64,000 nucleotides of DNA from Arenicellales bacterium (GTDB taxonomy: Bacteria > Pseudomonadota > Gammaproteobacteria > Arenicellales > JAJDZL01). Under the pieces are notes generated by a model, which was not told the DNA's origin, searched no databases, and worked only from the letters and a program-made list of their open reading frames with translations. The stretch covers positions 1,109,209-1,173,208 of the forward strand of contig OZ241916.1 in NCBI GenBank assembly GCA_965203865.1, written 5' to 3'. Position numbers and translations under genes: made by a program. This document shows positions 2,590 through 43,163 of the stretch, one piece after another. Within the stretch, counting starts at the first letter, position 1, and each line of letters starts with the position of its first letter.

Positions 2590-3693
2590 CTAAGCTTGTG
2601 CGGGTGCATCTAAAGCACGGCAGTCGTCATAATGCCACCCGACAGAAATATTTTCACCGAGTTCAAGGTCTGCATGATGGTGGGAATTAGGAATTTTGAT
2701 AATGAATTCATCGCTTCCACAGAGATTGACACGCGTTCTGACATGGTCCCCCAGATAAATTACTTCTTCAACATTGCCTTTTACAACATTTGAACATTCA
2801 CCTGATTCCGGATTGATTATCACTCTTTCAGGTCGTAGCGAAAGCGTGGTCGGCTTGCCAACTCCAGAAATATTGACCGATTTGGCTGAAACAATCTCCC
2901 CATTTTCTACCTCTACTTCGCATTTATCACCGGATACTTCGTTGATAGTTCCTCGAAGAACATTGTTTTCGCCAATAAATTGGGCCACGAAAGCATTCTG
3001 GGGGCGCTCGTAAAGGTCATCGGGGGGTGCCAACTGTTGGATTACACCATCGTTGAATACCGCAATTCGATTCGACATGGTTAAAGCTTCGCTCTGGTCG
3101 TGTGTTACATAGACAACTGTAACTTCCAGATTTTCGTGAATATGTTTAATTTCATACTGCATTTGTTCGCGAAGTTGTTTGTCAAGTGCTCCCAATGGTT
3201 CGTCCATCAATACGAGTTTGGGTTGAAAGACCAAAGCTCGCGCTACCGCAACTCTTTGTTGCTGTCCCCCTGACAATTGACCGGGGCGTCTTGACCCAAA
3301 GTCTTGCAACTGGACCATTTCCAAAGCATTTTTTACCCGACTCTCTATCTCGGAATTTGGAAGTTTTCTGACTCGCAAAGGAAACTCCAAGTTTTCATTT
3401 ACTGTCATATGCGGGAACAGTGCGTAGTTTTGAAACACCATTCCAATTTCTCGCTTATGAGGAGGTACGTTGTTAATGGGAGTGCCATCAAGGATAATTT
3501 CGCCGTGAGTAGCGGTTTCAAAACCGGCGAGCATCATCAGGCAAGTCGTTTTCCCGGAACCGGAAGGACCTAGTAAAGTTAAAAATTCACCTTGCTCTAC
3601 AAACAGGTTTAAATTTTTGACAACAAGCGTTTCCCCGTCATAACTTTTTTGTACATCTACAAATTGAACATATGCATTGCTGTTTTCATTCAT
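2590..3693 (-). CDS. Polyamine-type ABC transporter ATP-binding subunit (PotA-like)
   Basis: Walker A GPSGSGKT, VFQNYALFPHMTV, LSGGQQQR, DEPLGALD, TOBE-like C-terminus. Confidence 0.88.
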   Translation of the reverse strand: MNENSNAYVQFVDVQKSYDGETLVVKNLNLFVEQGEFLTLLGPSGSGKTTCLMMLAGFETATHGEIILDGTPINNVPPHKREIGMVFQNYALFPHMTVNENLEFPLRVRKLPNSEIESRVKNALEMVQLQDFGSRRPGQLSGGQQQRVAVARALVFQPKLVLMDEPLGALDKQLREQMQYEIKHIHENLEVTVVYVTHDQSEALTMSNRIAVFNDGVIQQLAPPDDLYERPQNAFVAQFIGENNVLRGTINEVSGDKCEVEVENGEIVSAKSVNISGVGKPTTLSLRPERVIINPESGECSNVVKGNVEEVIYLGDHVRTRVNLCGSDEFIIKIPNSHHHADLELGENISVGWHYDDCRALDAPAQA

Positions 3694-3761
3694 TATGATT
3701 CACCTGCTTGAAATTAGTACAGTCTACACTTACTTGTCGGTAATAGGCAAATTTATGTTAG

Positions 3762-4367
3762 TCAAGCGAAAAATTTTGCCTTGATTTCCCAAGCGCCGTC
3801 CCATGTCATTATGACAGCAACATAGAATATAATTGCCACTCCTAAATATCCTATCCACGGACGCTTGTTGATTTGACTCGCAATTGCTGTGGCGGCAATT
3901 AGCATCAATACAACTGAAAGTACAAGTCCGAATATCAATATCAATACATGATTTCGTGCAATGCCTGCAAGCGCAAGGACATTGTCCAACGACATTGAGA
4001 AATCAGCGACAATAATTTGGAATAGTGCACTCTTAAATGACAATTGTTCACTATACTCGCGCATTGAATGAACTTTAGCTTGTGTTTTTTTCGCCCCGCG
4101 AATTTGAACAAACAATCTCCAGCCAACCCAGATTAGAAGCAAGCCGCCTATGAACAACAACCCTGGGACCTTCAATAGCTGAGTGATGGAAACAGCGAAT
4201 ACAATTCTTAGAATCACAGCAACGGCAATTCCAATAGAGATCACTCGCATTCTAATATCTGGTTTTACCGATGCAGCGACAAGGCCAACAGCAATCGCGT
4301 TGTCACCGGCTAATACCAAGTCAACCAATATGACTTGAACTAGTGCACTAAGTGATTCAAAAGACAT
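3762..4367 (-). CDS. TerC/YjbE family integral membrane protein
   Basis: DLVLAGDNA and ADFSMSLDNVLA motifs, multiple TM segments. Confidence 0.88.
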   Translation of the reverse strand: MSFESLSALVQVILVDLVLAGDNAIAVGLVAASVKPDIRMRVISIGIAVAVILRIVFAVSITQLLKVPGLLFIGGLLLIWVGWRLFVQIRGAKKTQAKVHSMREYSEQLSFKSALFQIIVADFSMSLDNVLALAGIARNHVLILIFGLVLSVVLMLIAATAIASQINKRPWIGYLGVAIIFYVAVIMTWDGAWEIKAKFFA

Positions 4368-4567
4368 TCTGGATGGAAGTCAATACTATTTCATCGATTT
4401 CGAATTAACCCAGGTGAACCTGAATTGTTGCATGTGGAGACGTAGTTTGCCTTAAATCTAACCAAGCGAAAAATCCGCTAAGAACGTACTTATATACGAA
4501 CTTGACTTTTTGAGCCTGAGTTTGATTCATCAGTTGGAAGATTTAACCCTGTTGAATTTCAAATAAA

Positions 4568-5641
4568 TTAGAAGTCGACTGTGCTGAGCAATACTGAACC
4601 ACCTTTTATACAGCAGGAGTAGTTTCGCCAGTAATTCCAGACGTAATTTCCATCCTCTGCTATTTTACCTCTCGACCAATTGTCTGCTGCACCGAATGCT
4701 TCACATTTGTTGTCGTTTCTGGGGAGCAGCATTTGCCAATTGTCGCTTTGTTCATTTGAGCCTGGATTCCATTGATGCCAAATTTGCTGCCTGCATCCGT
4801 ATTTGCTTTCCTTGCCATCAATCTGCCCCCAAGAGCCCCCGCTATCTTCACACTCAGGCTTTGACTGTGCCGCAACGTTTCCCCTCCGAATATTTTGTGT
4901 TGCTGAAGTATTTACGGGTTTGAAAATGTGCCCGTTTCCATCATTAAGGACTATGTCTATTGCCCGTTGAGCAGTGACTGCCGCAGCTTTGGCGGGATCG
5001 GATTGCAGTACAAAACCCGAGCGAGGATAAACCGGTCCCCAAGTAGAGTTGGGCCAATTTCCAATTTCCCGAACTCCGGGGGTTAACGCTTCGGGACGGT
5101 AGGAATCGGGCTCTCCGGTTCTCCAAGCTCTTGCATCTATCGCTGAGAGGTAATAAGGGACGAATGGTTTTACTTTGGATTGGCACAGAAATCGATTAAA
5201 TTTCAGGATATTTACCGCCGGACCTCCAATGACATCCGCCTCGTAAAAAAAAGTTGAATCTGTATGCTGCATTCCACTGCCGACCCCTGATAAATTGCCT
5301 CCTGACAAGAAACGATTTACCGATTTTGAAACTGAACCCGTAACTTTTCGGGCTTCACTCCAAGGATTCATAAATGTTTGAGAATACGAAGATACTATTA
5401 GGTCTGGTAGTCGGTGAGAAATTTTTGGTGTTGTAGTTACTCGGCATCCAAATAACGAGCACTTCAACCAAAAGCAAGCTCCTGCTATTTTCCAATTCAG
5501 GCAATTTTGACTCATTGACCGTTCAATGATTTCAACGGAATTGATTGTTCCGGCAAGAGATTGACAGGAAATAATTACAGTACCTATTAACAGGCAGGAT
5601 AATTTAAGCTTCTTGGGCATTGAGAATTTTACTAAGTGCAT
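4568..5641 (-). CDS. ICE TraU-like protein (TIGR03756/PFL_4710 family)
   Basis: Signal peptide, CLNWKIAGACFWLKC, HRLPDLIVSSY, PYYLSAIDARAWR, WGPVYPRSGF, AAAVTAQRA, WNYWRNYSCC. Confidence 0.85.
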   Translation of the reverse strand: MHLVKFSMPKKLKLSCLLIGTVIISCQSLAGTINSVEIIERSMSQNCLNWKIAGACFWLKCSLFGCRVTTTPKISHRLPDLIVSSYSQTFMNPWSEARKVTGSVSKSVNRFLSGGNLSGVGSGMQHTDSTFFYEADVIGGPAVNILKFNRFLCQSKVKPFVPYYLSAIDARAWRTGEPDSYRPEALTPGVREIGNWPNSTWGPVYPRSGFVLQSDPAKAAAVTAQRAIDIVLNDGNGHIFKPVNTSATQNIRRGNVAAQSKPECEDSGGSWGQIDGKESKYGCRQQIWHQWNPGSNEQSDNWQMLLPRNDNKCEAFGAADNWSRGKIAEDGNYVWNYWRNYSCCIKGGSVLLSTVDF

Positions 5642-5669
5642 CCTTGGATTTGGATAGTAAGCTTTGTGA

Positions 5670-8525
5670 TCAGGTTGCGTGGAGTCGACTCATGCGAATA
5701 TCTTCTGCGATTTGGTATGCTGCTTCAAGTTCAGACCAGCCATGTTTTTCCATCAACTTGGCTCGCTGAGCTTTTTCGTTTTTTTCAGTTTGAGACAGTG
5801 CCAAGGCAACCGCCGGCGGCACATTTCGAAACAAAGAAGTAAGATTCGTAGAAATTACTGACCCCTCTGTATAGAATCCCGGAGCCTTTCGTGCGCTGAG
5901 TAATAATTCCTCCTGTTCAGAAGTTAATGATCGGAATCGACTTATCTGGCTGATTTCGTCTTTGTCTACCGATAGGCAGAACCACCATTCGGGTTGATTC
6001 AAAAATTCCTTCGCATCCTCTGGAAGTTGCCTTAAATTTTGAGTTGCAGTCCACAACCAAGCTCCAAAGGTTCGCCAAGTTGCCGAAATACGATTAATGT
6101 AAGGAGAAACTAGCGGGTTTTGAAGCAATATATGTGCTTCATCAATGACGACAATTGTTTGCCGTTCTTGAAACTGCTCTGCCTCGACTTGATTGTTGAT
6201 GGTGGCAAAAAGCCCCGTTAAAGCGACTGCTAAGCGGTCTTCATATCCCTTGCGTGCAAATAGATCCAACTCAACCAATGTGATGTCGGCACTAGGCCAC
6301 AATTTGCCTTCTCTATTAAAAAATTTTCCGTTTAGTCCTGTACAAAACAAATTCATAGCGCTTGCCATTCGGCCAGCATGAATACTCTGGTCCTTGGTAA
6401 ATCGCTTCCCCCCAATTTCTTTCCTCTCTGCAATTTGAAGCAGTGCCGAAACTACATCGCTGGTTAATGTTTGTGAACGATTTTCCAGTTTTGAATTTTT
6501 TGCCGCTTCCAAAATCGCAAATCGAATAATATTCAAGTCGTCTCTGCGTAACTTTTTCTCTTCGTTTCGCTGGCCACCAGTAATCATGAGCCGAGCTTGA
6601 AGTTCCATCTCGCCAAGCGGGTCGCGCACTACATGTGACGATTCTGAATCCGTTTTGTATGTAAAATCGGCAAATTCTGGCATCTCTTGACTTAATAGTA
6701 CCTGGGCATACGCGAACGGCGGAATAGAGATACTGCTTTTACCATCAACAATTACTCGATGAACATTCAATCCGTAGTGTTCGCAATGATCGGCAAATAG
6801 ACCGAATGTCGGCAATGCAGTGATCAAATAAATACGAGGGCGATGTATTGAAATTGCATGAAGCAAGGAGTAAACCAAAAAAGCTGTCTTGCCCGAGCCT
6901 GTAGGTCCGAGAATGAGAGCATGAGCATTTTTGGCTCGGTCGGAAGAATTCAAAGGATCGAATGTCAGAGGCTCAGCACCGCGGTTATAAAGCAGCATTC
7001 CGGGATAGCCGCTTCCCCTGGACCGACCATACGCAGGGGCAAATCTTGAAATATGACTTGCATACCAGAGTCTGGACCGACGAGCAAACAATTGTTGATC
7101 CTGAACCGGATCAAATCCGAATGGCAAGGCTCTTATATAGCTGTCAAGTGATATTGGATCATAGCGCGGCGCTACCAATCGAATATGGTTAGCGGAAAGA
7201 AAGCTTAAAACAGATTCAGTTTTTCTATCCAGATCGGCCAGGTTGTCTCCAAACAGAAATGCTCCGCAAAATACTCTAAAAATAGGGTTTCCTCGTGCTA
7301 ATTCACCTAACGCCACACTGGCAAGTTTTCTGCGTTCAAGTGCGGATGCTTCGTCACCCACTGAGTTTTTACTTACTTTTGAAATCTTCTCCCGAATTTC
7401 ATCTTGTGCGGAATAGACAATTGTCATTGACCAGATTGAATTTTCAGGCATTTGATCCCACAGAGTTCCACTAGAATCTCCAAATCTTCTCTCTGCTGTT
7501 AAATGGCCTATTTCAGGTTCGCCCGTTAATTCATCCATTGACAAGAATCTGCTTGGTTTGCCCCGAAACCACCATATTCCTGGTTTTTTCCATGTCCATG
7601 GAGCTACTCCGTGCAACGCTGCCCGGCCAAGGTCGGCGCGTGCAGATTCAGAAACCAGAGATAGCGAATTATCCAGTTCAGTGTATCTCCAAGGATTTTG
7701 TTCAAGTAGCTCTTGAGTATTTTTGTGGTCAGATTCTGAATCGGGCTGAGGTACGAACCAGTAGGTAAGCCACTCATAAAGCTCGCTTGCTTCACTTGGG
7801 ATGAGTTTTACTTCTGCTTGAGCAAAAGTAGCTACAAGTTGCTCGCACACTTGATCTATATTGTCGTACTCGTTCCCTCGTTTTTGATTAGAAATTCGCC
7901 AAATACACAATCGGACTTGACGATTTCTGCCTCGCCAACAACTATTGATCAAATTTGGATCCTGAAACAGTCCATTTGACTGTGCTATGTCCTTAAAATG
8001 CTGTTCTAGTTGCGCAAGCCAAAATTTAGAGTAGCTAGAGTCCATTGACGATTCGGACATGTAGTCTTTGATTTGTTTGATCAATGCTGGAAAATAGGCC
8101 TTGCTGTCATCCTGAATGAACCATTGAAGAATCCAGGGATTATTCTGATGTAATGGCAACACACTAGAAATGGCATGCATGATTTTTGCGTTTAAAGTAT
8201 TCATGGACTCATCTGTTCGAGCTTCTGTGTTGCTGACTTTTACATTGAACATTCGTCCCACGCTCGAGAAGTCTTGCAAGCAAATTTTCCCGTTTTTCAA
8301 GTCGATTCTTGGGGCAAGCAAGTCAGCGAAAGAACGAGTATGGCTCACAATTTCTTTATATGCCTTGTCAGGGTGAAGCTGTGGTTCAAGGTACTCCTCT
8401 ACAGTTAGTGGATTGCTACCTTTCCCATCCCATTTAGTCAAAGGAAGACTGTCAGGCTCAACCACATTGTTCTCCATTAAGTCGGACTGAAAATTTTGTT
8501 TTGAAAAAATTTTGAGAATGCTCAT
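5670..8525 (-). CDS. Conjugative transfer ATPase, VirB4/TraC-like (TIGR03744/PFL_4706 family)
   Basis: NRGAEPLTFDPL, NAHALILGPTGSGKT (Walker A), RDPLGEMELQARLMITGG, IDEAH, WLWTATQNL; ATG 8525 follows GAGG (ORF track extends to 8612). Confidence 0.9.
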   Translation of the reverse strand: MSILKIFSKQNFQSDLMENNVVEPDSLPLTKWDGKGSNPLTVEEYLEPQLHPDKAYKEIVSHTRSFADLLAPRIDLKNGKICLQDFSSVGRMFNVKVSNTEARTDESMNTLNAKIMHAISSVLPLHQNNPWILQWFIQDDSKAYFPALIKQIKDYMSESSMDSSYSKFWLAQLEQHFKDIAQSNGLFQDPNLINSCWRGRNRQVRLCIWRISNQKRGNEYDNIDQVCEQLVATFAQAEVKLIPSEASELYEWLTYWFVPQPDSESDHKNTQELLEQNPWRYTELDNSLSLVSESARADLGRAALHGVAPWTWKKPGIWWFRGKPSRFLSMDELTGEPEIGHLTAERRFGDSSGTLWDQMPENSIWSMTIVYSAQDEIREKISKVSKNSVGDEASALERRKLASVALGELARGNPIFRVFCGAFLFGDNLADLDRKTESVLSFLSANHIRLVAPRYDPISLDSYIRALPFGFDPVQDQQLFARRSRLWYASHISRFAPAYGRSRGSGYPGMLLYNRGAEPLTFDPLNSSDRAKNAHALILGPTGSGKTAFLVYSLLHAISIHRPRIYLITALPTFGLFADHCEHYGLNVHRVIVDGKSSISIPPFAYAQVLLSQEMPEFADFTYKTDSESSHVVRDPLGEMELQARLMITGGQRNEEKKLRRDDLNIIRFAILEAAKNSKLENRSQTLTSDVVSALLQIAERKEIGGKRFTKDQSIHAGRMASAMNLFCTGLNGKFFNREGKLWPSADITLVELDLFARKGYEDRLAVALTGLFATINNQVEAEQFQERQTIVVIDEAHILLQNPLVSPYINRISATWRTFGAWLWTATQNLRQLPEDAKEFLNQPEWWFCLSVDKDEISQISRFRSLTSEQEELLLSARKAPGFYTEGSVISTNLTSLFRNVPPAVALALSQTEKNEKAQRAKLMEKHGWSELEAAYQIAEDIRMSRLHAT

Positions 8526-13084: not shown

Positions 13085-13717
13085 TCAATTAATTTCGAAT
13101 ATTCCGTTCTGAAATTTTGTTCCTTGGCTGTTTGCCCGGGTTACAGTAATTCGACGGGTACGCAGTAAATGAGCTGGAATCTGGTGAGTGGTAGTCCAGT
13201 TCCGAAGTTGTAAATTACTCACTCGTTCTTGTATTACTATATCCAATGCCCCGCCTTTGATTACATGCTGTAAAGCAAGGTTCAAATTGTCTTTGCAGGA
13301 TTTATTGGTGCAATTGTATGGAGTAACTAGCAGAATTCGTTTCTGGAGCTGCCCGCTGTCCCTTTTTAGAACTAGTTCGTTCATCGCTGAGATGTATTCT
13401 GTTTCGAATTTGCTAATGGCTTCGGTAACCTCTAATTGGCGTTCGGCAAACAGTTTTGCGTAGTACTTTCTCTTTTCGGGTGTCTTTGCGAATATACCAA
13501 GCCATTCTAGTGGACTGATATCCGCAGAAATCAAGCCGCTGAACTGTCGCTCAAGTTCTTTGTATTGTCCCCATTCAGCTACTGATAGTCCCCACACATC
13601 AGCGGTTTGTTTTTGAATCTCTTGCAAACTTGATTGTGTCATCTGGGTGTGTTCAATTGTTGTCTGGGCAAACACTGAAACCGTCCAGACCAAAATAATA
13701 AAGAAACTGTATTTCAT
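13085..13717 (-). CDS. ICE protein TIGR03759/PFL_4693 family
   Basis: WGLSVAEWGQYKEL, ISPLEWLGIFAKTPEKRKYYAKL, LRNW...IP...RRITV. Confidence 0.82.
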   Translation of the reverse strand: MKYSFFIILVWTVSVFAQTTIEHTQMTQSSLQEIQKQTADVWGLSVAEWGQYKELERQFSGLISADISPLEWLGIFAKTPEKRKYYAKLFAERQLEVTEAISKFETEYISAMNELVLKRDSGQLQKRILLVTPYNCTNKSCKDNLNLALQHVIKGGALDIVIQERVSNLQLRNWTTTHQIPAHLLRTRRITVTRANSQGTKFQNGIFEIN

Positions 13718-14484
13718 TCACTGACTCTCATTACGTGTTCAATTTTGGATTTTTGGTTTTCGAAGGTGGCAGTGTTGCCTAGCGGATCAATATTCTTGAG
13801 TTGCCAACCCAAACGGGACTCATTGAGGGCGAGCATGGTAATTCTACTGTCTAGCGAAATTACAGCATTCCACTCTGTATTCCAGTTCTCAACAGAAATC
13901 AGCGTAAACTGAGGCATGTGTGAATGGTCTACTGCTTTGCGTTCTTGGGCTTTTTGCTTCTCAAGGTGCTGTTCTAGATACTGTTGTATGCGATCCAAGC
14001 GAAGGTATAGTTCCTCATTGTGAATTTGAGGTAGTTTTGTTCTGTCAAGGATTTGTTTTACATCGTTCTCAAGCATCTCGAGACGATTGTTGAAGTAGGA
14101 GTGTGCATCTTCATTTGATTTGAGCAGGTACTCTATATTTTTAATAATGGATTCAAAATCCGGGGTGACCAATTTTTCTGTCTCGGAGATAGTTTCTTCA
14201 TGAATTGGCGTTTGAGAATTCCTGGAGATGTCCTGTTTGGGGATTGCCTCGGTAACCGGTACCGGAGGGGCAGTTTGACTTTGAATTTGTGAATGCACCA
14301 CTGAATCAGATTTCCCCTTGGCATACTGCAACGTTTGGTCTGAGTGTATAAGAAAATAATAAGAGCCAACCAATAGAACAGGGATGACAATCAATGAGTA
14401 ACGGAGTAATTTAGATACTGAACCCGGCAACCGGGGCAGAAAGGATCTTTTTCCAGGACTAGGCTTGTTGGTGCTTGAAGACAT
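13714..14484 (-). CDS. ICE membrane-anchored coiled-coil protein (normally precedes TIGR03759)
   Basis: N-terminal TM, coiled coil, C-terminal PQFTLISVE...GWQLKNID..TATF; start 14484 or 14526. Confidence 0.6.
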   Translation of the reverse strand: MSSSTNKPSPGKRSFLPRLPGSVSKLLRYSLIVIPVLLVGSYYFLIHSDQTLQYAKGKSDSVVHSQIQSQTAPPVPVTEAIPKQDISRNSQTPIHEETISETEKLVTPDFESIIKNIEYLLKSNEDAHSYFNNRLEMLENDVKQILDRTKLPQIHNEELYLRLDRIQQYLEQHLEKQKAQERKAVDHSHMPQFTLISVENWNTEWNAVISLDSRITMLALNESRLGWQLKNIDPLGNTATFENQKSKIEHVMRVSE

Positions 14485-14619
14485 AATCCCGCAATTTTGC
14501 CATTTACAACACAGTAGTTGATTCAAAATATGAATTTGAAAAGAAAGTAATTACTTCAATTGCCCATAATTGAAATCAATTTAAAAATTGCCATTACAAC
14601 TGGTTCATATAAAAAGAAA

Positions 14620-14643
14620 GGGACTTATATATAATGATAACCA
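14620..14643. repeat. Left terminal inverted repeat, element 1
   Basis: GGGACTTATATATAATGATAACCA. Confidence 0.9.
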
Positions 14644-14649
14644 ATTGCC

Positions 14650-15855
14650 ATGATTAGAACTTTTACATATACTGCCAAGCTTTCCAAGGGCTGCCACAGG
14701 AACCTGGAAGAATTTCTGAGTCAGGAAACAATCTTGTGGAACTGCGCCTTGCAAGAGAGGATAGAAGCTTACAACAAGGCCGGCAGGACTATAAGTCTGT
14801 ACGACCAGCAAAAGTCCTTGACCCAGATAAGGGGAGACGATGATTGGTTTAGCAAGTTTGATGCTTTTGCGCAAAGAACCTGCTTAAGAAGACTGGACAA
14901 GGCGTTCAAGAGATTCTTTCGTCGAGTCAAGAAAGGAGAGAATCCGGGTTTTCCAAGGTTCAAGTCAAGGAGCAGGGGAGTAAAGTCTTTTGAAACCCAT
15001 CAGTTTCGTATTCACAAGGCTTTGTCTTGGCATTGTGTCCGAATAAAAGGAATAGGCAAGTTCAGGTTCAAGGGTGAACTGAAAGGGGAAGTTAAGTTTT
15101 TAAGAATCGTAAAGACTCCTGTAAGGATTAAGATTCAGTTGGTTTGCGAGCTTCCGGATATAGAAACTGTAGATACAAGAGCTCCTGTAGGCATAGATGT
15201 AGGAGTTTTGAATAGGGTTAGTCTTTCCAACAGAGTACAGATTCCTAAAAGGAATGTAGACAGAAACAAACTAAAAACTTTACAGAAGAAAGTTTCCAAG
15301 TCTGTAAAGGGTTCCAACAGCAGGAAGAAGAAGATTCTATCCTTGAACAAGGAGTGGCAGAGAGTCGGAGAGAAGAACAAAGGATACCTGCATGAACTAA
15401 CCAGTTCCTTAATCAAGGACCAGACTTCCAAGTTTTATGTAGAAGACTTAAGAATTGAGAATATGACGGCTTCTGGCGGTAGCAGTAAAGCCGGACTGAA
15501 CAGGTCAATACTTGACCAGACATGGGGAGACTTTAATTTTATGCTTGGCTACAAGGCTGAAAGCGCCGGTGGCTTTGTCAAGAAGGTCAACCCCAGGTTT
15601 ACATCCCAGGTCTGCTCCAACTGCGGGCATAAGCCTAATGAGAAGATCAAGCTAAGCGATAGGACTTATCTTTGCAAAGCTTGTGGCTACAAAGGAGACA
15701 GGGATGTAAATGCAGCAATCAATGTTCTTCGTGTCGGATTAAACGGCACTTTGGGCGGGAGGCCCGAAGCGCAGGAAGAAGGAAGGCTTAAAGCATTCAT
15801 TGGAATGCCCACTGCGCAGAACAGTATACAGTGGTCTGGTTATCATTGTATATAA
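14650..15855 (+). CDS. tnpB: RNA-guided endonuclease TnpB
   Basis: WNCALQER, GFPRFK, RuvC-I GIDVG, RuvC-II VEDL, Zn finger CSNC/CKAC, RuvC-III DRDVNAAIN. Confidence 0.95.
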   Translation: MIRTFTYTAKLSKGCHRNLEEFLSQETILWNCALQERIEAYNKAGRTISLYDQQKSLTQIRGDDDWFSKFDAFAQRTCLRRLDKAFKRFFRRVKKGENPGFPRFKSRSRGVKSFETHQFRIHKALSWHCVRIKGIGKFRFKGELKGEVKFLRIVKTPVRIKIQLVCELPDIETVDTRAPVGIDVGVLNRVSLSNRVQIPKRNVDRNKLKTLQKKVSKSVKGSNSRKKKILSLNKEWQRVGEKNKGYLHELTSSLIKDQTSKFYVEDLRIENMTASGGSSKAGLNRSILDQTWGDFNFMLGYKAESAGGFVKKVNPRFTSQVCSNCGHKPNEKIKLSDRTYLCKACGYKGDRDVNAAINVLRVGLNGTLGGRPEAQEEGRLKAFIGMPTAQNSIQWSGYHCI

Positions 15856-15880
15856 GTCCCAAAAGAAATGTACTGAACCG
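15652..15880 (+). ncRNA. Putative omegaRNA (reRNA) of tnpB copy 1; 5' end and guide length uncertain
   Basis: ~194 nt identical between otherwise diverged copies; several stems; TnpB omegaRNAs are known to overlap the tnpB 3' end. Confidence 0.55.
15837..15860. repeat. Right terminal inverted repeat, element 1
   Basis: TGGTTATCATTGTATATAAGTCCC; contains the tnpB stop codon. Confidence 0.9.
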
Positions 15881-15932
15881 ATTAGCGTGCAACCGGCCTT
15901 GTGAGTGTGCTAATTTTTCAATATTGGAAGAA

Positions 15933-16394
15933 CTATACTGCTGGTAGTATTGAAGAATAAATTAAAGTGTCCAAAACGACGAGTCCAGCTGCAACTGATA
16001 AGCCTACACCGAAAGGTGCTTCATTCATTTTTGTGTTTTTGGCAAGTCCGTAAACAAAAATTGTGAACACAGAAGCAATTATCAAGACAATCGGCAGGCA
16101 TTGCCAGCCAAACCATGCTCCTATTGCGGCTAGATACTTTGCGTCGCCAAGTCCAATTCCCGAAAATCCTCGAACATGAGCCTGAATGTCATGCAGTATG
16201 CGAACTGAAATGTAAGCAGAAGTGGCACCTGTTATTGCGGAACTTGGAGATACCAACAATGAACCGCTATTGACAACAAGGCCAAGCCAAAGCAGAGATA
16301 GAGTAAACTTGTCGGGCAATAGATTGAATCTATGGTCACTTACGGCCAAGAGTATCAAATAAATTACGAAAACTGTACAGGCAAGCGAATTCAA
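15933..16394 (-). CDS. pilU: Prepilin peptidase (A24, PilU-like, no N-terminal methylase domain)
   Basis: SDHRFNLLPD and GIGLGDAKYLAAIGAWFGW aspartate motifs, PFGVGL. Confidence 0.85.
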   Translation of the reverse strand: MNSLACTVFVIYLILLAVSDHRFNLLPDKFTLSLLWLGLVVNSGSLLVSPSSAITGATSAYISVRILHDIQAHVRGFSGIGLGDAKYLAAIGAWFGWQCLPIVLIIASVFTIFVYGLAKNTKMNEAPFGVGLSVAAGLVVLDTLIYSSILPAV

Positions 16395-16418
16395 AACCTT
16401 ATTTAATTTTTACAAGTT

Positions 16419-17930
16419 TTATTTTGGATTTACACATTGCGTCCATCTCGTTCTGACAATGCATTTCTTATAGGCTTTAACATAGGAATTTTGGCACTGA
16501 AGGGTTTGTGCATTTCGAGTGCCGTAAGCAAAAATTTTAGATCCTCCCGAAAGTCTGACAGATGAAACGTACTCATATCCTCCTCCGTTTGACCCCCAAG
16601 TGCAATATTCACTTGATTTGATGCATCCGGTTGTAGTTGAGCATCGTGAGTTAACTGAAAATCTAGATTGATTGCAGTTATCAGAATTCCATGGATATTG
16701 ACTGTCAGAATTGCGCTGAGCAAGCGCAGTGGCACGGCTTGGAGAGCATGTTTTTGGAATCCATTCATCAGGTGCTTCGTCAGGCATTGCACTATAAATG
16801 TCATCCACGCAATCAGTATCGCAGTACAAGCTAAATCTGTTTGTATTAGCACTTACATCGCTTTGAATTGCATTAATGCTTGTGTCATGCGCCTCAATTC
16901 GTCCAGTTAAAGTAATTAGATCGTTACGGTTTTGTGTCACCTCGCCGTCAATTCTACTCACATCTGCAGATTGGTCCAGCCGGGCAAAACCCTCGCCAAT
17001 GGCACCTTCGGCAGAGGGAAGCGTTAGTGATTCGGTAGCCGTGATTTCTTCAGTGGTAATATCGGACGTAGTAATCCCGCTATTCGCCTCCAGAGTACCG
17101 TCGGAAATTGTTAAACCACCGCCACCAGAGATAGCCAAACCATCATTCAATGGTTGAATTGACATTGTATTTTCAAATGTAATTCCTCCGGTCATTTCAT
17201 TGCTTCCATCCAACCGTAGGAATGGCGCATCTCCTGAATTCACACCAATTCGGGTTTGAATACGAGCCAAATCATCAATTGCCGAAGAGTCGTATGTAGC
17301 AGAATCCGGGTCAAATTCAATGCCGGTTGGATCTTCCTGGGCAAAAACAACCTCGAAAAAACCGAGTACGCCCGCACTTGTTTCTGTTTGAGCTTCGTTT
17401 AGAGCGATTGCCGCCAAGTCCGGGCGAGCATCCGGAAGTCCGTTCTCATCACGATCTCTGCCCGAGCGAAACACCCCGAAATCAATTGTAGCCTGCGGCC
17501 CTTGTGGTTGAATTTGAACATCAATTTCAAGGTCACCAAATGTTACTGCGTCGCCTTCGTCATTGAGTATATACGGCAAAACTGTGTCTGCCCTGTAGTT
17601 GCACGCCAAAAATCTCACCCCTGCCGGGTCAGTGCAATCCTGTAAATCTGCAATTAACAATGTAGTTGCCGCAGTTGGCGGGTTCTCTGCCAGTGCAACA
17701 GATGTTGCTCGCGAAAATGCCGCAATTGATCGGCCGGTCTGACGTGCGGTATCGCTTTGAAGTTTATGAGATTGTTGCTGCGCCCAGACTACGAGAATTG
17801 TTATACCAATCGCAATTGCGATCAAAGACTCGACAATTGTAATTGCACCTTGCTCTCGGGTTCTGTATTCACCATTATTTGCCAAGGATAATTTGGCGAA
17901 TCTGGTAAATTTTAACCATTGAATGTCCAT
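16419..17930 (-). CDS. pilV: PilV-like minor pilin/tip adhesin
   Basis: Prepilin-like QGAITIVESLIAIAIG, FLRLDGSNEMTGGITF, coiled coil, Cys-rich C-terminus; follows the major pilin. Confidence 0.7.
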   Translation of the reverse strand: MDIQWLKFTRFAKLSLANNGEYRTREQGAITIVESLIAIAIGITILVVWAQQQSHKLQSDTARQTGRSIAAFSRATSVALAENPPTAATTLLIADLQDCTDPAGVRFLACNYRADTVLPYILNDEGDAVTFGDLEIDVQIQPQGPQATIDFGVFRSGRDRDENGLPDARPDLAAIALNEAQTETSAGVLGFFEVVFAQEDPTGIEFDPDSATYDSSAIDDLARIQTRIGVNSGDAPFLRLDGSNEMTGGITFENTMSIQPLNDGLAISGGGGLTISDGTLEANSGITTSDITTEEITATESLTLPSAEGAIGEGFARLDQSADVSRIDGEVTQNRNDLITLTGRIEAHDTSINAIQSDVSANTNRFSLYCDTDCVDDIYSAMPDEAPDEWIPKTCSPSRATALAQRNSDSQYPWNSDNCNQSRFSVNSRCSTTTGCIKSSEYCTWGSNGGGYEYVSSVRLSGGSKIFAYGTRNAQTLQCQNSYVKAYKKCIVRTRWTQCVNPK

Positions 17931-38642: not shown

Positions 38643-39809
38643 CTACTTTGATTCTTCAAACAGTTCACGCCCAATTAATAGCCGGCGTATTTCACTGGTT
38701 CCGGCACCGATTTCGTAAAGCTTGGCATCTCGTAGCAATCGCCCCGTGGGAGATTCATTCATATAGCCCATGGCGCCAAGAATTTGTATAGCCTCCAAGG
38801 CACACTGCGTTGCTTTCTCAGCAGTAAACAGAATGACTCCAGCGGAATCTTTGCGAGTTGTTTCACCCCGGTCGCAGGCCTGTGCCACTGCGTATGCGTA
38901 TGCTCGCGATGCATTCAGTATAGTATACATGTCGGCAATTTTTCCCTGAATGAACTGAAATTCGCCAATTGATTGATTGAATTGCTTGCGATCGTGAATA
39001 TAGGGAACAACTACATCAAGACAGGACTGCATAATACCGATTGGTCCAGCGGAAAGCACTACTCTTTCATAATCCAGCCCGCTCATCAAAACATTCACCC
39101 CTTTGCCGATTTCGCCCAGTATATTTTCATGCGGCACAAGACAGTTTTCGAAAATGAGTTCACCGGTGTTGGAACCTCTCATGCCGAGCTTGTCAAGTTT
39201 TTGCGCAGTGGAAAAGCCTTCGAATTTACGCTCGATCAAAAATGTGCTAATCCCCCTTGGGCCGGCATCATGATCAGTTCGCGCATAAACAACCAGAACA
39301 TCAGCATCCGGTCCGTTTGTAATCCACATTTTATTCCCATTAAGAACATAGCCTTCATCTGTATGCTTGGCATCCATTTTCATGCTAACCACATCGGAGC
39401 CGGAGTTGGGTTCGGACATCGCCAGAGCACCAATATGTTCACCGCTAACCAGTTTGGGCAAATACCGTTGCTTTTGTTCTCGAGTTCCATTTCTTCGAAT
39501 TTGATTCACCGCCAGGTTTGAATGTGCACCGTACGACAATCCGACAGACGCAGAAGTGCGGCTGATCTCCTCCATAGCGACAACGTGTTCCAGGTATCCC
39601 ATGCCCGCTCCGCCGAATTCTTCTTCCACGGTTATACCGAGCAATCCAAGGTCCCCCAGTTTTGACCATAAATCCTGTGGAAATTCATTTTGCCGGTCAA
39701 TTTCGTCAGCGTATGGAGCGATTTCGCTTTCAGCAAATTCTCGGACGCTTTGTCGTAGCAGATCGGCAGTTTCACCGAGTGCAAAATTCAATGTGGGGTA
39801 GGATGTCAT
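38643..39809 (-). CDS. liuA: Isovaleryl-CoA dehydrogenase
   Basis: [41 protein letters not shown]. Confidence 0.95.
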
Positions 39810-39816
39810 TTCTATT

Positions 39817-41058
39817 GGGATTTATATATATTGATAACCAGACCACTGTATACTGTTCTGCGCAGTGGGCATTCCAATGAATGCTTTAAGCCTTCCTTCT
39901 TCCTGCGCTTCGGGCCTCCCGCCCAAAGTGCCGTTTAATCCGACACGAAGAACATTGATTGCTGCATTTACATCCCTGTCTCCTTTGTAGCCACAAGCTT
40001 TGCAAAGATAAGTCCTATCGCTTAGTTTTATCTTTGTATCCGGCTTGTTTCCACAGTTGGAGCAGACTTGGGATGTAAACCTGGGATTGACTTTAGATAC
40101 AAAGCCACCGGCACTCTCAGCCTTGTAGCTTAGTATAGAATTAAAGTCGCCCCACGTTTGGTCAAGTATTGACCTGTTTAATCCGGCTTTACTGCTACCG
40201 CCAGTAGCTGTCATATTCTCAATTCTTAAGTCTTCTACGTAAAACTTGGAAGTGTAGTTCTTGATTAAGGAACGGGTTAGTTCATGCAGGTATCCTTTGT
40301 TCTTCTCGCCGACTCTCTGCCATTCCTTGCTTAAAGCAAGAACCTTCTTCTTTCTGCCGTTAGAACCTTTTACAGCTCTTGAAACTCTTTTGTGCAAGGA
40401 CCTTAGTTTAGTCCGGTCAACTTTTCTTTTAGAAACCTGCACACCATTGGAAAGACTAACTCTATTCAAGACTCCGGCATCTATGCCTATAGGACTTCTT
40501 TCATCCTCTACTTCCACATCCGGCAGCTCGCAAACCAGCTGAATCTTAATCCTTACAGGAGTCTTTACAATTCTAAGGAGCTTGGCTTCTCCCTTCAGTT
40601 CACCCTTGAACCTGAACTTGCCAATTCCTTTTATTCGGATGCACTGCCAAGGTCCTGCCTTGTGAATACGAAAAGAGTCTGTTTCAAAAGACTTGATTCC
40701 CCTGTTCCTTGGCTTGAACCTTGGAAACCCCGGCTTCTCTCCTTTCTTTACCCTGTCAAAAAATCTTTTGAATGCCTTGTCAAGTCTTCTTAAGCAGGTT
40801 CTTTGGGACGAGCAATGAAACTTCTCAAACCAATCATCTTCTTTCCTTATAGTTGTCAAAGACTTCTGCTGGTCAAGATAAGAAATACCTATATTCTGCT
40901 TTTCGTAAGCTTCTATTCTTTCCTGCAAGGCACAGTTCCACAAGAGTGTCTCCTGATTCAGAAACTCTTCCAGGTTCCTGTGGCAGTCCCTGGAAAGCTT
41001 GGCAGTATATGTATAAGTTCTAATCATGGCAATTGGTTATCATTGTATATAATATCCC
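39817..41058 (-). mobile_element. tnpB-only element, copy 2 (1242 bp), with 24-25 bp TIRs and 8-bp TSD AATAGAAA
   Basis: TIRs GGGATTTATATATATTGATAACCA (39817-39840) and TGGTTATCATTGTATATAATATCCC (41034-41058); TTTCTATT at 39809-39816 and 41059-41066. Confidence 0.92.
39822..41027 (-). CDS. tnpB: RNA-guided endonuclease TnpB (paralogue of 14650..15855)
   Basis: GIDAG, VEDL, CSNC/CKAC, DRDVNAAIN; about 68 of 401 residues differ from copy 1 (manual count). Confidence 0.95.
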   Translation of the reverse strand: MIRTYTYTAKLSRDCHRNLEEFLNQETLLWNCALQERIEAYEKQNIGISYLDQQKSLTTIRKEDDWFEKFHCSSQRTCLRRLDKAFKRFFDRVKKGEKPGFPRFKPRNRGIKSFETDSFRIHKAGPWQCIRIKGIGKFRFKGELKGEAKLLRIVKTPVRIKIQLVCELPDVEVEDERSPIGIDAGVLNRVSLSNGVQVSKRKVDRTKLRSLHKRVSRAVKGSNGRKKKVLALSKEWQRVGEKNKGYLHELTRSLIKNYTSKFYVEDLRIENMTATGGSSKAGLNRSILDQTWGDFNSILSYKAESAGGFVSKVNPRFTSQVCSNCGNKPDTKIKLSDRTYLCKACGYKGDRDVNAAINVLRVGLNGTLGGRPEAQEEGRLKAFIGMPTAQNSIQWSGYQYI

Positions 41059-41065
41059 TTTCTAT

Positions 41066-41527
41066 TCACTTGGGCTTGAGACTAATTAGCGTTTGAAGCA
41101 CTGTTGCACAAAGTGTTGGCTGGTTGCCGGAAAATACATTCACTTCAATATTGGTAAAAAATAATGTCCTGCCCGGTTTGACGACTTTGCCTTCTGCGAT
41201 CAGGAAATCGCCCTTGGCAGGCGCAAGCAAATTAATCTTGAACTCAACGGTAAGCACGCGATAATTCTCGGGCATTAATGTCAGCCCCGCGTATCCTCCG
41301 GCAGAATCAGCAATCGTGCTTGTTGCGCCTGCATGAAAGAAGCCATCTTGTTGAGAAAGTGCTTCATTGAAGGGCAAATGGATTGTACATCGTCCGGCTT
41401 CTACCGTTTCAAGAGTCGCTCCAAGCAGTCGCATGATTCCCTGACTGTTAAAGCTCTCCCTCACAACTTCCTCAAAGTTGGAGTTGGGGGGAGAGTATCT
41501 TGAAACTGGAGTGCTGGGCATTTGCAA
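41066..41527 (-). CDS. PaaI-family hotdog thioesterase
   Basis: QQDGFFHAGATSTIADSAGGYA, VLTVEFKINLLAPA. Confidence 0.92.
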   Translation of the reverse strand: MQMPSTPVSRYSPPNSNFEEVVRESFNSQGIMRLLGATLETVEAGRCTIHLPFNEALSQQDGFFHAGATSTIADSAGGYAGLTLMPENYRVLTVEFKINLLAPAKGDFLIAEGKVVKPGRTLFFTNIEVNVFSGNQPTLCATVLQTLISLKPK

Positions 41528-41914: not shown

Positions 41915-42526
41915 TCAAAATTCATCCGATGATATAGCAATTTTTTGCACCATCCGCACCATCCAGACTGGCATGTGGCTGACATTACGGAGCAAATTGT
42001 GCTTTACATTGTGGGGGAGAATTCTTTTTAGGTGCACAATAATATTGTCATTGTTATTTAATTGATTTTCTCTCAGCCAGCGTAGAGCCTGAACAACTGG
42101 GCCGGCCGGCTGGTTCGCCCAAAACATGGTGTTGGAACTCGCATGCTGGAGAACCAATTTTTCCCCGTCAATGTGAATTACACGAGAAACACCATCTGTG
42201 AGATAGACTACTTCCTCTGGTTCTTGGTCGGACAACTGCAGACGGTAAGCCGCCTCCATACCAGATATCATTACACGGATATTATCTCGCCGAATAATGG
42301 CTCGAATTACGTGAATGCGTAGAAATGTACTGCTTGATGGCAGCGTATACATACCGCGTGCTATGCGAACGAGTTTGCGTTTTTTTACCAGTCGGGATAA
42401 TGCCTTGTCTATTGCATGTCGGCTTCCCAAATCCAGAAAATCCCGCGAGATAGAAACCCATCCGTCTCGCCCGTATGACCTCATTCGACGCATTATTTCA
42501 TTTTCAATTTTGAGACTTGTATACAT
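41915..42526 (-). CDS. DUF6088/AbiEi-like (type IV TA antitoxin-type) wHTH protein
   Basis: DFLDLGSRHAIDKALSRLVK...RIARGMY, AAYRLQLS.Q.P..VVYLTDG, VVQALRWL. Confidence 0.78.
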   Translation of the reverse strand: MYTSLKIENEIMRRMRSYGRDGWVSISRDFLDLGSRHAIDKALSRLVKKRKLVRIARGMYTLPSSSTFLRIHVIRAIIRRDNIRVMISGMEAAYRLQLSDQEPEEVVYLTDGVSRVIHIDGEKLVLQHASSNTMFWANQPAGPVVQALRWLRENQLNNNDNIIVHLKRILPHNVKHNLLRNVSHMPVWMVRMVQKIAISSDEF

Positions 42527-42932
42527 GTTTATCCAGAATAATAAGTAGGCATACTTTTCTGCGCAGTCAGCACCCCAACTGGTACTTTACTTCTTCCTTT
42601 TCCCTGCTCTTTGGGCATTTCGCGTAAAGTACCGTTCAAACCGATACGAAGAACATTGTTTGGTGCATTCAGATACCGGGCTTCCATATAACCCAAGAAC
42701 CCATATCTGTATTTGCGCTGACTTGGGTACAGCGTTTTATCCGGCTTGTGTTCGTATTTTGAACAGACTTGGGATGTAAATTCTGGAGAGACTTTCCTCG
42801 CAAAGCCACCGGTATTCCCAGCCTTGTAACTCGGCAGAGCCCAAAACTCTTCGAGATTCTTGTGTGTATCGGAAGACAAACTTCCAGTGTATGTAAAAGT
42901 TCTAATCATGGTTAAACAGATATGTAAGTCCT
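42512..42932 (-). mobile_element. Degenerate internally deleted copy 3 (421 bp) of the tnpB-TIR element
   Basis: Decayed TIRs GAGACTTGTATA (from 42512) and TATGTAAGTCCT (to 42932); near-TSD TCAATTTT (42504-42511) / TTAATTTT (42933-42940). Confidence 0.75.
42529..42909 (-). pseudogene. tnpB: tnpB remnant (in-frame deletion of ~273 codons)
   Basis: MIRTFTYT..NLEEF fused to ..YKAGNTGGF..FTSQVCS..VLRIGLNGTL; three Zn-finger Cys and the RuvC-III Asp lost. Confidence 0.85.
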
Positions 42933-43163
42933 TTAATTTTTCATAGGGTGAATCGGTCCTGTTAGCAATTTGACCCAACTGCAATATCACCTGTACGGAG
43001 ATACGCTGCGGTTTTTTGGTAAAATCTGCGTAACAAGTTGTCGAGTTCTAATTAATCAAAGGGAATTACACAAGCATGCTTGCTTCAAATTCAGAATAAA
43101 TGCCAAACGAAAAAAAACAGATTTTTTCAATCACCTGTACTAAACTTGAGAGTTGAATTTGAT

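Follow-up and report, generated by a model that had tools for sequence, protein, structure and literature searches.

TnpB, the ancestor of Cas12, is believed to earn its place in IS200/IS605 and IS607 elements because their excision leaves no scar. The association of prokaryotic TnpB with DDE transposases is considered rare and puzzling in a 2026 review, which lists ISL2, IS630 and IS1031 as the partners (PMC13565253). The DDE-transposase-associated TnpB branches DDE-1 to DDE-6 (Altae-Tran et al. 2023, PMC10691335) consist of prokaryotic TnpBs flanked by inverted terminal repeats, with the 3' end of tnpB at most 250 bp from the transposon end; some are solo TnpBs whose ends are almost the same as those of relatives that carry a transposase, a likeness that was read as mobilization in trans. 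A tnpB gene inside a DDE-type element with inverted repeats, also as a solo gene between such shared ends, has been known since 2023 (PMC10691335). The main text of that study names IS630 and contains the term "IS1595" zero times, while its supplements may name more families. Our own literature search, judged by titles and the beginnings of abstracts, retrieved no TnpB element with IS1595-type ends.

Two other kinds of element are close to the one described here. In the TnpB-only members of IS200/IS605 (the IS1341 group), the 3' end of the gene doubles as guide-RNA sequence and the RNA continues into the flank, and the proposed role of the nuclease is to cut the unoccupied site beside a 5' motif; these elements have neither inverted ends nor duplications and depend on Y1, whose target is the TAM (PMC13565253). 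The cut-and-paste transposons of eukaryotes and viruses that carry Fanzor1 or Fanzor2* (PMC10711439, PMC3627910) are non-autonomous, have inverted ends and duplications and carry nothing but a TnpB-type nuclease. Here the duplications are short and always of one sequence, and the guide-RNA scaffold includes the inverted end; the 5' copy of the duplication has been interpreted as belonging to the TAM, and the 3' copy folds with the scaffold (PMC10711439).

The window, that is the whole 64,000-nucleotide stretch of an Arenicellales genome analysed here, contains a cassette (copy 1; 14620-15860, plus strand) that resembles the DDE-1 to DDE-6 branches both in its inverted ends and in the short distance from tnpB to the element end. 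It is 1241 bp long and its sole long ORF is one intact tnpB gene coding for 401 aa (14650-15855, plus strand), the stop codon of which lies within the right inverted repeat. The left terminal repeat (14620-14643, plus strand) is 24 bp long, shares its first 12 bases with the IS1595-family elements of the genome and is matched by the right repeat (15837-15860, minus strand) at 23 of 24 positions; the same 24-mer occurs at 39817-39840 with two mismatches, and was found in none of 100 shuffles. Just outside the ends, AAAAGAAA is present as an exact 8-bp duplication (14612-14619 and 15861-15868, plus strand).

Copy 2 (39817-41058, minus strand) is 85% identical to copy 1 at the DNA level and has an intact 401-aa tnpB (39822-41027, minus strand). 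Its duplication, TTTCTATT on the plus strand and AATAGAAA in the orientation of the element, occupies 39809-39816 at the tnpB-distal (right) end and 41059-41066 at the tnpB-proximal end, where it is followed on the plus strand by CA (41059-41068 in all), equivalent to TG at positions -2 and -1 of the element. Copy 3 (42512-42932, minus strand) is an internally deleted and decayed member of a more distant subfamily, with decayed ends and similarity to TnpB residues 288-401 only (46%); its flanking 8-mers, TCAATTTT and TTAATTTT (42504-42511 and 42933-42940), match at seven of eight positions. The initial annotation had reported tnpB alone between the repeats of copy 1 with a perfect direct repeat outside them, a second copy with a different 8-bp repeat, a decayed third copy, and intact RuvC acidic residues and zinc finger in the two full copies; each of these observations was reproduced, the last one extending to all 17 copies of the genome.

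The 17 cassettes are found genome-wide and fall into three subfamilies, the members of which cease to be alike precisely at the inverted ends. Tabulation of the duplications gave a length of 8 bp for 15 of the 17 (12 perfect, three with one mismatch), with variable, AT-rich sequences. Full-length tnpB ORFs remain in 13 cassettes, including nine of the ten in F1, the subfamily of the window's copy 1. A near-full-length copy at 1355831-1357071 (77-78% identical), whose ends are unrecognizable, was excluded from all tables of ends.

By sequence the protein is a TnpB, an RNA-guided endonuclease of the OMEGA class with a split RuvC-like domain and a zinc ribbon. The product of copy 1 matches the Pfam domains OrfB_IS605 and Cas12f1-like_TNB, scores 201.1 bits on the NCBIfam model guided_TnpB (cut-off 100) and can be aligned to the solved TnpB structures 8bf8, 8exa and 8h1j (E 3.5e-39). 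Residues D183, E265 and D352, which correspond by motif alignment to the predicted RuvC catalytic triad (D-E-D), and the four cysteines C322, C325, C342 and C345 (CxxC..CxxC) are present in 17 of 17 aligned genomic copies and invariant among 18 relatives. Over most of the ORF, identity at third codon positions (0.53-0.84) is lower than at first and second positions (0.77-0.99), which indicates purifying selection on tnpB at the protein level.

The same tnpB clade with the same termini was found in MAGs labelled Binatia, Hyphomonadaceae, Bryobacterales, Dehalococcoidia and Pseudomonadales. The link to IS1595-type ends concerns the entire TnpB clade, which occurs in several phyla. In a tree of 98 rows, from which L073 was left out as too short a match, all 21 TnpBs bearing the end motif fall in a single clade of 26 rows with strong support (SH-aLRT 99), and the remaining 72 rows are without the motif. 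Of the five unlabelled rows inside this clade, four proved to carry these ends, as such or in degenerate form.

The ends themselves point to the IS1595 family, and may resemble those of its ISNwi1 group. Elements with passenger genes are among those that ISfinder groups in the IS1595 family. Among the transposase-bearing elements of the genome, A and B each code for a transposase and a methylase; the transposases score 187 and 194 bits on the NCBIfam IS1595 model NF033547 (cut-off 75). The first 11-12 bases of their inverted ends are the same as those of the cassette, and their duplications are of 8 bp, as are those of the IS1595 transposase elements in the cassette-bearing genomes. A methylase-only element with the same ends is also present, so non-autonomous cargo carriers of IS1595 type exist in this genome. 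The 24-bp repeats (23 of 24 positions) recur in all subfamilies, and 8-mers differing at no more than one position flank 39 of 60 cassettes. Like A and B, the tnpB cassette combines the terminal 12 bases, AT-rich 8-bp duplications and a passenger gene between the ends; unlike them it has no transposase gene, tnpB being its sole ORF, and must be classed as non-autonomous, and its cargo is an RNA-guided nuclease whose candidate RNA uses one of the ends. From these sequence features, it is highly likely that the cassette belongs to a non-autonomous lineage of the IS1595 (DDE) family, with a functional-looking RNA-guided nuclease gene as its only cargo.

An IS200/IS605 (IS1341-type) or IS607 element, moved from other boundaries by a Y1 or serine TnpA and bearing its inverted ends and repeats incidentally, is an extremely improbable alternative. 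The protein does score 199.5 bits on the NCBIfam model IS200_TnpB, albeit below the cut-off of 425 bits, and is 27-35% identical to many TnpBs without such ends; its score on the IS607_TnpB model is 87.9 bits (cut-off 350). Against these similarities stand the variable 8-bp duplications flanking 39 cassettes in six genomes, the end of subfamily likeness exactly at the inverted repeats, and the domains encoded in the genomes. No Y1_Tnp domain was found in this genome (a single contig, 98% complete) or in the five other cassette-bearing genomes, with a control search positive in 6 of 14 genomes, and there was no Resolvase match in this genome. DDE_Tnp_IS1595, on the other hand, has 13 matches in this genome and is present in four of the five others (control search positive in 1 of 14); the exception is the Dehalococcoidia MAG, which carries a cassette and gave no IS1595 match. 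An IS200/IS605 or IS607 identity is thus contradicted by the duplications, the boundaries of the copies and the lack of matches to Y1_Tnp in the six genomes and to Resolvase in this one, in agreement with the initial annotation, which had argued against both families and likened the cassette to IS1595.

As the cassette has IS1595-type ends and 8-base duplications, it most likely borrows the transposase of that family, and it is probably moved in trans. This part of the earlier proposal fares best in the Hyphomonadaceae MAG, where the cassette ends match those of a co-resident IS1595 element at 11/12 and 10/12 subterminal positions; subfamily F3 of the present genome likewise matches an IS of a congener at 10/12. 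It is weakest for F1, whose subterminal ends are matched by none of the transposase elements found in the same genome (best 7-8/12): F1 shares just the terminal 12 bases with transposase elements, so that its current mobility in this genome is putative. The cassettes of this genome could instead be relics that lost their cognate transposase and became immobile, tnpB having been kept for a host or selfish function unrelated to transposition, such as homing or maintenance alone, or a domesticated role. The missing F1-type partner would fit this, as would the fact that F1 copies are 14-22% apart in their DNA, yet nine of ten ORFs are intact. The F1 duplications, however, differ by only one mismatch in 80 paired positions and are thus far less diverged than the copies, implying insertions much younger than the split of the copies, and the terminal 12 bases are identical to those of the intact transposase elements A and B. 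On this evidence we consider the relic explanation rather unlikely, and prefer mobilization in trans.

Unlike the DDE branches with transposase-bearing relatives (PMC10691335), the loci examined here include no element with both a transposase and tnpB. None with an IS1595 transposase and tnpB between the same ends was found in the genomes and MAGs or in a metagenome scan, and adjoining transposase and tnpB matches in three MAGs belong to separate elements. The metagenome scan for the end pattern, which was too unspecific, covered 80 loci, with tnpB adjoining in none, a distant tnpB in one and an IS1595 transposase in 11.

Insertion sites were also sought in the unoccupied state. When the 250-nt flanks of each of the 17 cassettes were compared by BLAST with the genome, no unoccupied paralogue was recovered, and no precise orthologous empty site was obtained either; the only congener is about 70% identical. 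For two family members, the genes flanking the element are about 1.3 kb apart, as expected in its absence, with a spacer that cannot be aligned. Contigs from four DNA runs of one study include one of 235 nt that joins 14555 to 15942 through 13 other letters; since this divergent strain exchanges 1386 bases for 13 others, the contig is not a precise empty site.

Examination of the flanks revealed a feature that is new here, a G or TG just 5' of the tnpB-side duplication that is absent from the pattern of the other side. Of 63 cassettes examined, three were set aside because no ends could be detected and 21 because their 8-mers differed at two or more positions (at least six of these being wrong internal left-end picks, about 1340-1406 bp), leaving 39 from six genomes with at most one mismatch. 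G is found at -1 in 37 of these 39 and TG in 25, against G in 11 of 39 on the mirrored side (Fisher p 7e-10) and on 8 of 36 sides of non-TnpB elements with the same ends (p 3e-11), the latter a small sample of 18 control elements, seven of which are extra elements from the metagenome pattern scan. The 39 cassettes test the motif with less than full independence, since those of one genome have their nuclease in common. Position -3 shows no such conservation (T in 11/39). Within the Hyphomonadaceae family, whose copies are 93-99.8% alike and represent a fairly recent burst, TG is kept in 11 of 12 copies, and two cognate-looking IS copies from the same source have G on 0 of 4 sides. Copy 1 of the window, with TA at -2 and -1 (14610-14611, plus strand), is one of the two exceptions, and this, like the shortness of the motif, counts against its being a TAM.

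The motif may be the TAM of the nuclease, with the duplication as the start of the guide, a reading that we favour by a modest degree on the basis of the aligned flanks. G/TG could otherwise be the -35 part of a hybrid promoter for tnpB, made up of flank and left end, or reflect a concealed asymmetry in the target sites that the transposase prefers. Positions -2 (T), -1 (G) and +1 (A) do look like letters two to four of the -35 consensus used by the promoter scan, -10-like hexamers occur at left-end positions 11-16, and the non-TnpB control sample of 18 elements is small. A scan of two copies, however, detected no sigma-70-like site with a 16-18 nt spacer across the left junction (direct reading gives a spacer of about 15 nt), the scarcity of T at -3 does not suit a promoter, and TG persists in the Hyphomonadaceae cassettes although their gene starts about 470 nt from the left end. 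The strict position of the G, exactly at -1 in 37 of 39, fits a motif abutting a guide match, and its low frequency beside non-TnpB elements, together with its absence at the Hyphomonadaceae IS, also counts against these alternatives. We therefore regard both the promoter and the target preference as unlikely, and retain the TAM as the preferred reading. The promoter scan did not recover an internal promoter that visual reading had suggested in the Hyphomonadaceae cassette.

A guide RNA for this nuclease would be expected at the right end of the cassette. Third-codon identity climbs to 0.87-0.90 in the last 120 nt, and the candidate guide-RNA (omega/reRNA) scaffold (15700-15860, plus strand) shows conserved stems and as much conservation at third as at first and second codon positions. 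The terminal module (15815-15860, plus strand) consists of a GAA..UUC closing stem around a hairpin, with the inner right inverted repeat as its 3' arm. When 100 sources were searched with a covariance model built on the last 46 nt, 21 matches resulted. Of these, 18 coincide with the right end of a cassette; the remainder comprises a solo sequence resembling a right end (L057), a left end matched in reverse, and a partial match in L122 (E 0.46), the sole match among 74 loci without the end motif. In the terminal module, the paired fraction of cells is 95.5% and drops to 25-55% when the partner is shifted, four pairs have changes on both sides and none of 500 shuffles reaches the observed score, although the alignment used for these pair counts was fitted to the model and favours structure. 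RNAalifold, applied to 23 right ends aligned with MAFFT, missed the terminal hairpin owing to misaligned loops, and the hairpin was defined by single-sequence folds and the covariance model instead; an Rfam scan of the whole window at gathering thresholds gave no match. This conserved hairpin overlapping the right end, probably the 3' module of a guide RNA, is likewise new here; neither it nor the motif 5' of the duplication is mentioned in the text of PMC10691335 dealing with the DDE branches. One transposon end would thus double as part of a conserved candidate RNA.

These features can be combined in a model of the life cycle of the cassette. An IS1595-family transposase made elsewhere would bind the ends and insert the cassette by an 8-bp staggered cut. 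The 3' 120-160 nt of tnpB and the right inverted repeat would encode a guide-RNA scaffold reading into the flank, so that the guide would start with the right copy of the duplication, its first eight bases (15861-15868 for copy 1). The unoccupied allele, composed of the motif, a single 8-mer and the right flank, would be a complete target, and its cutting by the nuclease would lead to repair that copies the cassette in. The occupied allele would offer just eight matched guide bases at the left junction, and at the right junction the element's own CCC would stand in place of the motif.

Such a cassette has its counterparts in both kinds of element introduced above. With the IS1341 group it shares the protein family and size, while the Y1 dependence and the coincidence of Y1 target and TAM described for that group do not apply here (PMC13565253). 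As in Fanzor elements (PMC10711439), the nuclease is the sole cargo of a non-autonomous element, and an inverted end is proposed to contribute to the guide-RNA scaffold; here, however, the duplication consists of eight variable bases and the conserved motif lies outside it, so that the guide would have to include the duplication. The cassettes offer a concrete and inexpensive system in which to study the adaptation of an RNA-guided nuclease to a cut-and-paste-type partner with long and variable duplications, and to test whether homing or target choice explains the association of TnpB with IS1595.

Target choice would apply if TnpB, through its motif and with or without RNA, biased the site and orientation of insertion by the borrowed DDE transposase, placing the cassette next to a TAM. 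The G/TG in the recent Hyphomonadaceae burst, along with its absence beside non-TnpB elements, fits such a bias as well as it fits selection after insertion, and we hold the bias to be quite improbable overall. If true, a nuclease would here assist target choice in a minimal, CRISPR-free manner, a concept that lies upstream of CRISPR-associated transposons.

The nucleases of this clade are compact (about 400 aa) and possibly have a very short TAM, the candidate motif being of 1-2 bases compared with the 4-5 bases of the TnpB motifs covered in the 2026 review (PMC13565253).

The inverted ends of the cassette in the window consist of a 24-mer at 14620-14643 (+ strand) and its reverse complement, with one mismatch, at 15837-15860 (- strand); in a sequence search this 24-mer was found in none of 100 shuffles of the window. 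An 8-bp duplication, AAAAGAAA, lies outside both ends (14612-14619 and 15861-15868), and the sole long ORF between the ends (14650..15855, + strand, 401 aa) is, on sequence criteria, a TnpB: it hits Pfam OrfB_IS605 and Cas12f1-like_TNB, scores 201 bits on NCBIfam guided_TnpB (cut-off 100) and matches solved TnpB structures with an E-value of 3.5e-39. The ends, 8-mer and ORF are as the initial annotation gave them, as are copy 2 (39817-41058, - strand) and copy 3, a decayed one (42512-42932). The D, E, D and four C residues aligning with the RuvC and zinc-ribbon motifs, which it described as intact in the two full copies, are kept in 17/17 genomic copies. Copy 2 adjoins the ATG of a neighbouring - strand ORF, with its duplication abutting that ATG (window 41059-41070), so the insertion cuts this gene off from its upstream region. 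Immediately to the right of the first cassette (15933-17930, - strand) lie two ORFs, one for a 153-aa membrane protein and one of 503 aa whose N-terminal segment is hydrophobic.

The source genome, a single contig of 3.15 Mb, holds 14 near-full-length cassette relatives (DNA identity 78-86%) and a second cassette subfamily at about 66%. Our table comprises the 17 cassettes with recognisable ends, in three subfamilies (ten F1, including the window cassette, three F3 and four F2); one more copy, its ends unrecognisable, was excluded. Duplication length had been proposed as a check, and 15 of the 17 have 8-bp duplications at no more than one mismatch: 12 are perfect, each different and AT-rich, and three carry one mismatch, the flanks of the remaining two (both F2) being unrelated. 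Full-length tnpB ORFs are present in 13/17. Over most of tnpB, identity among F1 and F3 copies is markedly lower at third codon positions than at first and second ones, indicating protein-level selection, whereas over the final 120 nt third positions are as conserved as the other two (about 0.9), indicating constraint on the nucleotides themselves. F1 copies differ from one another by 14-22% at the DNA level while their duplications show 1 mismatch in 80 paired positions, from which it appears that these copies split before inserting at their present sites.

What could mobilise such cassettes? Domain searches of the source genome returned no Y1_Tnp and no Resolvase match, and 13 matches to DDE_Tnp_IS1595, two of them inside complete IS1595-family elements: A (2948 bp, G000:C1:2154512-2157459, on the genome's contig), with a transposase and a 496-aa DNA-methyltransferase passenger, and B (2678 bp, G000:C1:1699134-1701811), with a transposase and a 472-aa DNA-methyltransferase passenger. 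Their transposases score 187 and 194 bits on the NCBIfam IS1595 model (cut-off 75), and they are flanked by 8-bp duplications, TAATTTTT for A (in the transposase's orientation) and TTTTATAA for B. An IS1595 transposase gene with the cassette's ends had been predicted; A and B bear this out for the first 11-12 bases of their inverted ends, which are identical to the cassette's, but not for the subterminal part of F1, which has no match in the genome (at best 7-8 of 12 positions), so that a tie to any particular transposase is not shown for the window copy. A 1466-bp methylase-only element with the same termini (G000:C1:2134261-2135726), encoding a 427-aa methyltransferase related to B's passenger, shows that transposase-less cargo carriers of this lineage are present in the genome independently of tnpB. 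A 981-bp IS1595-family IS in three copies with perfect 8-bp duplications (G000:C1 near 2592642, 913121 and 2085136) has quite different ends and is no candidate mobiliser. Another end variant shares its first 16 bases with the cassette (G000:C1:2814811-2814980, 2088638, 2123544, 2269492, 2528227, 2748618), and includes a MITE-like pair of ends only ~170 bp apart and a decayed IS that retains a DDE fragment (2273068-2273989).

The strongest support for mobilisation in trans comes from the co-variation of cassette and IS ends. In a Hyphomonadaceae MAG, 11 and 10 of the 12 subterminal positions agree between the cassette ends and those of the co-resident IS; F3 matches an IS of the only congener (~70% identical) at 10 of 12, and one Binatia subfamily its co-resident IS at 9 of 12. 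An IS1595 transposase and tnpB within one pair of ends were not seen in the loci examined. These results support the reading of the window feature as a non-autonomous cassette of IS1595 type that carries tnpB alone, and the finding initially annotated is real.

To survey other genomes, we scored the 12-base end motif (at most one mismatch) in 80 TnpB loci returned by a search of contigs from one genome per species. It is present in six, which are among the query's closest relatives; their MAGs carry the labels Binatia, Hyphomonadaceae, Bryobacterales, Pseudomonadales and Dehalococcoidia. Five cassette copies occur in the congener. With ends scored on a 98-row TnpB tree, as had been suggested, all 21 motif-bearing rows fall in a single 26-row clade (SH-aLRT 99) and the motif is absent from the other 72 rows; the clade's five unlabelled rows comprise one with ends, three with degenerate ends (one having its own 8-bp duplication) and one truncated gene. 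TnpB matches number 32 in the Hyphomonadaceae, 21 in the Binatia and 9 in the Bryobacterales MAG. IS1595-family transposases occur in 4/5 other cassette-bearing genomes against 1/14 genomes in a control search, their elements having the same kind of termini and 8-bp duplications, and Y1 transposases in 0/5. A 2895-bp passenger-bearing IS1595 element of the Bryobacterales MAG (positions 3005-5899 of locus L213, G033:C1:4316000-4323000; duplication TTTCGGAA) is inserted 45 nt upstream of a same-clade tnpB, apparently into that cassette's left end.

Cassettes oriented by tnpB, and kept where the two 8-mers have at most one mismatch (39/63 examined), reveal a motif beside the duplication. The base directly 5' of the tnpB-side duplication (-1) is G in 37/39, the -2 base is T in 27/39, and TG is found at -2/-1 in 25/39; the mirrored position at the opposite end is G in 11/39 (Fisher p 7e-10), and 18 elements that have ends of this kind but no TnpB show G on 8/36 sides (p 3e-11). 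The rule holds lineage by lineage: F1 (9/10), Hyphomonadaceae (12/12), Binatia (4/4) and Bryobacterales (3/3). Window cassette 1 breaks it, with TA at -2/-1, while copy 2 has TG. A transposase that is symmetric and works on nearly symmetric ends would not be expected to leave a one-sided motif, and tnpB-less elements are without it.

The simplest reading of these flanks is that the motif is the putative target-adjacent motif (TAM) of the nuclease. The guide would begin directly after the element's last base, so that an empty allele, in which the motif runs directly into the single 8-mer and the right flank, would offer a TAM and a full guide match, and neither junction of the occupied allele would have both together. 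That the motif is nearly universal might come from the spread of TAM-adjacent insertions by drive in a recombining population, or from a bias acting as the cassette inserts. A role as part of a hybrid promoter, composed of flank and left end, is a weaker explanation: a promoter scan of two copies found no 16-18-nt-spaced site across the junction, and the Hyphomonadaceae family retains the motif with its gene start ~470 nt from the end. The proposed TAM and guide layout differs from the solution described for the eukaryotic Fanzors, in which the duplications, short and of fixed sequence, contribute to the TAM and are also taken up into the scaffold fold (PMC10711439; PMC13565253).

The right end may also act as RNA. 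Folding the terminal 62 nt of single sequences predicts one shared module in most lineages: a hairpin, its 3' arm formed by the inner portion of the inverted end, enclosed by a GAA..UUC stem, with CC remaining between module and flank; the left end does not form it. The upstream partner motif is kept across phyla where the protein tail is not. A covariance model built on 12 seeds has 21 matches among 100 sources, 18 at cassette right ends, the others being a solo end, a left end in reverse and a partial match (E 0.46), the sole one among 74 loci without the end motif. On an alignment fitted to the model, hence biased in its favour, 95.5% of cells are paired (25-55% with partners slid), four pairs have changes on both sides, and none of 500 shuffles reaches the observed score. 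A transcript running over the cassette right end is predicted.

IS200/IS605 and IS607 elements, the usual TnpB hosts, are described as lacking inverted ends and duplications (PMC4810608, 2016, on ISC transposons; PMC13565253, a 2026 review), in agreement with the initial annotation. The category it proposed is already in print: Altae-Tran et al. (2023) describe six DDE-transposase-associated TnpB branches, all with inverted terminal repeats, in which tnpB terminates less than 250 bp from the transposon end, together with solo TnpBs with the same bounding ends (PMC10691335). Partner families named are IS630 (PMC10691335) and ISL2, IS630 and IS1031 (PMC13565253); 'IS1595' is absent from the main text of the former, the supplements of which may list it. 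Our literature searches found no published TnpB-IS1595 element, and the portions of the DDE-TnpB literature covered mention neither a motif lying outside a variable duplication nor an end-overlapping hairpin. The interest of the cassettes lies in the breadth and coherence of their clade, the flank motif and a testable guide/TAM model around an 8-bp duplication.

Contigs from four DNA sequencing runs of one study (X1-X4) were compared with window 13600-16900. Their summed depth on the cassette is several-fold to more than ten-fold that of the flanks, and loose contig ends with differing continuations begin at 15860-15867, both of which fit many copies at other sites of the sampled community.
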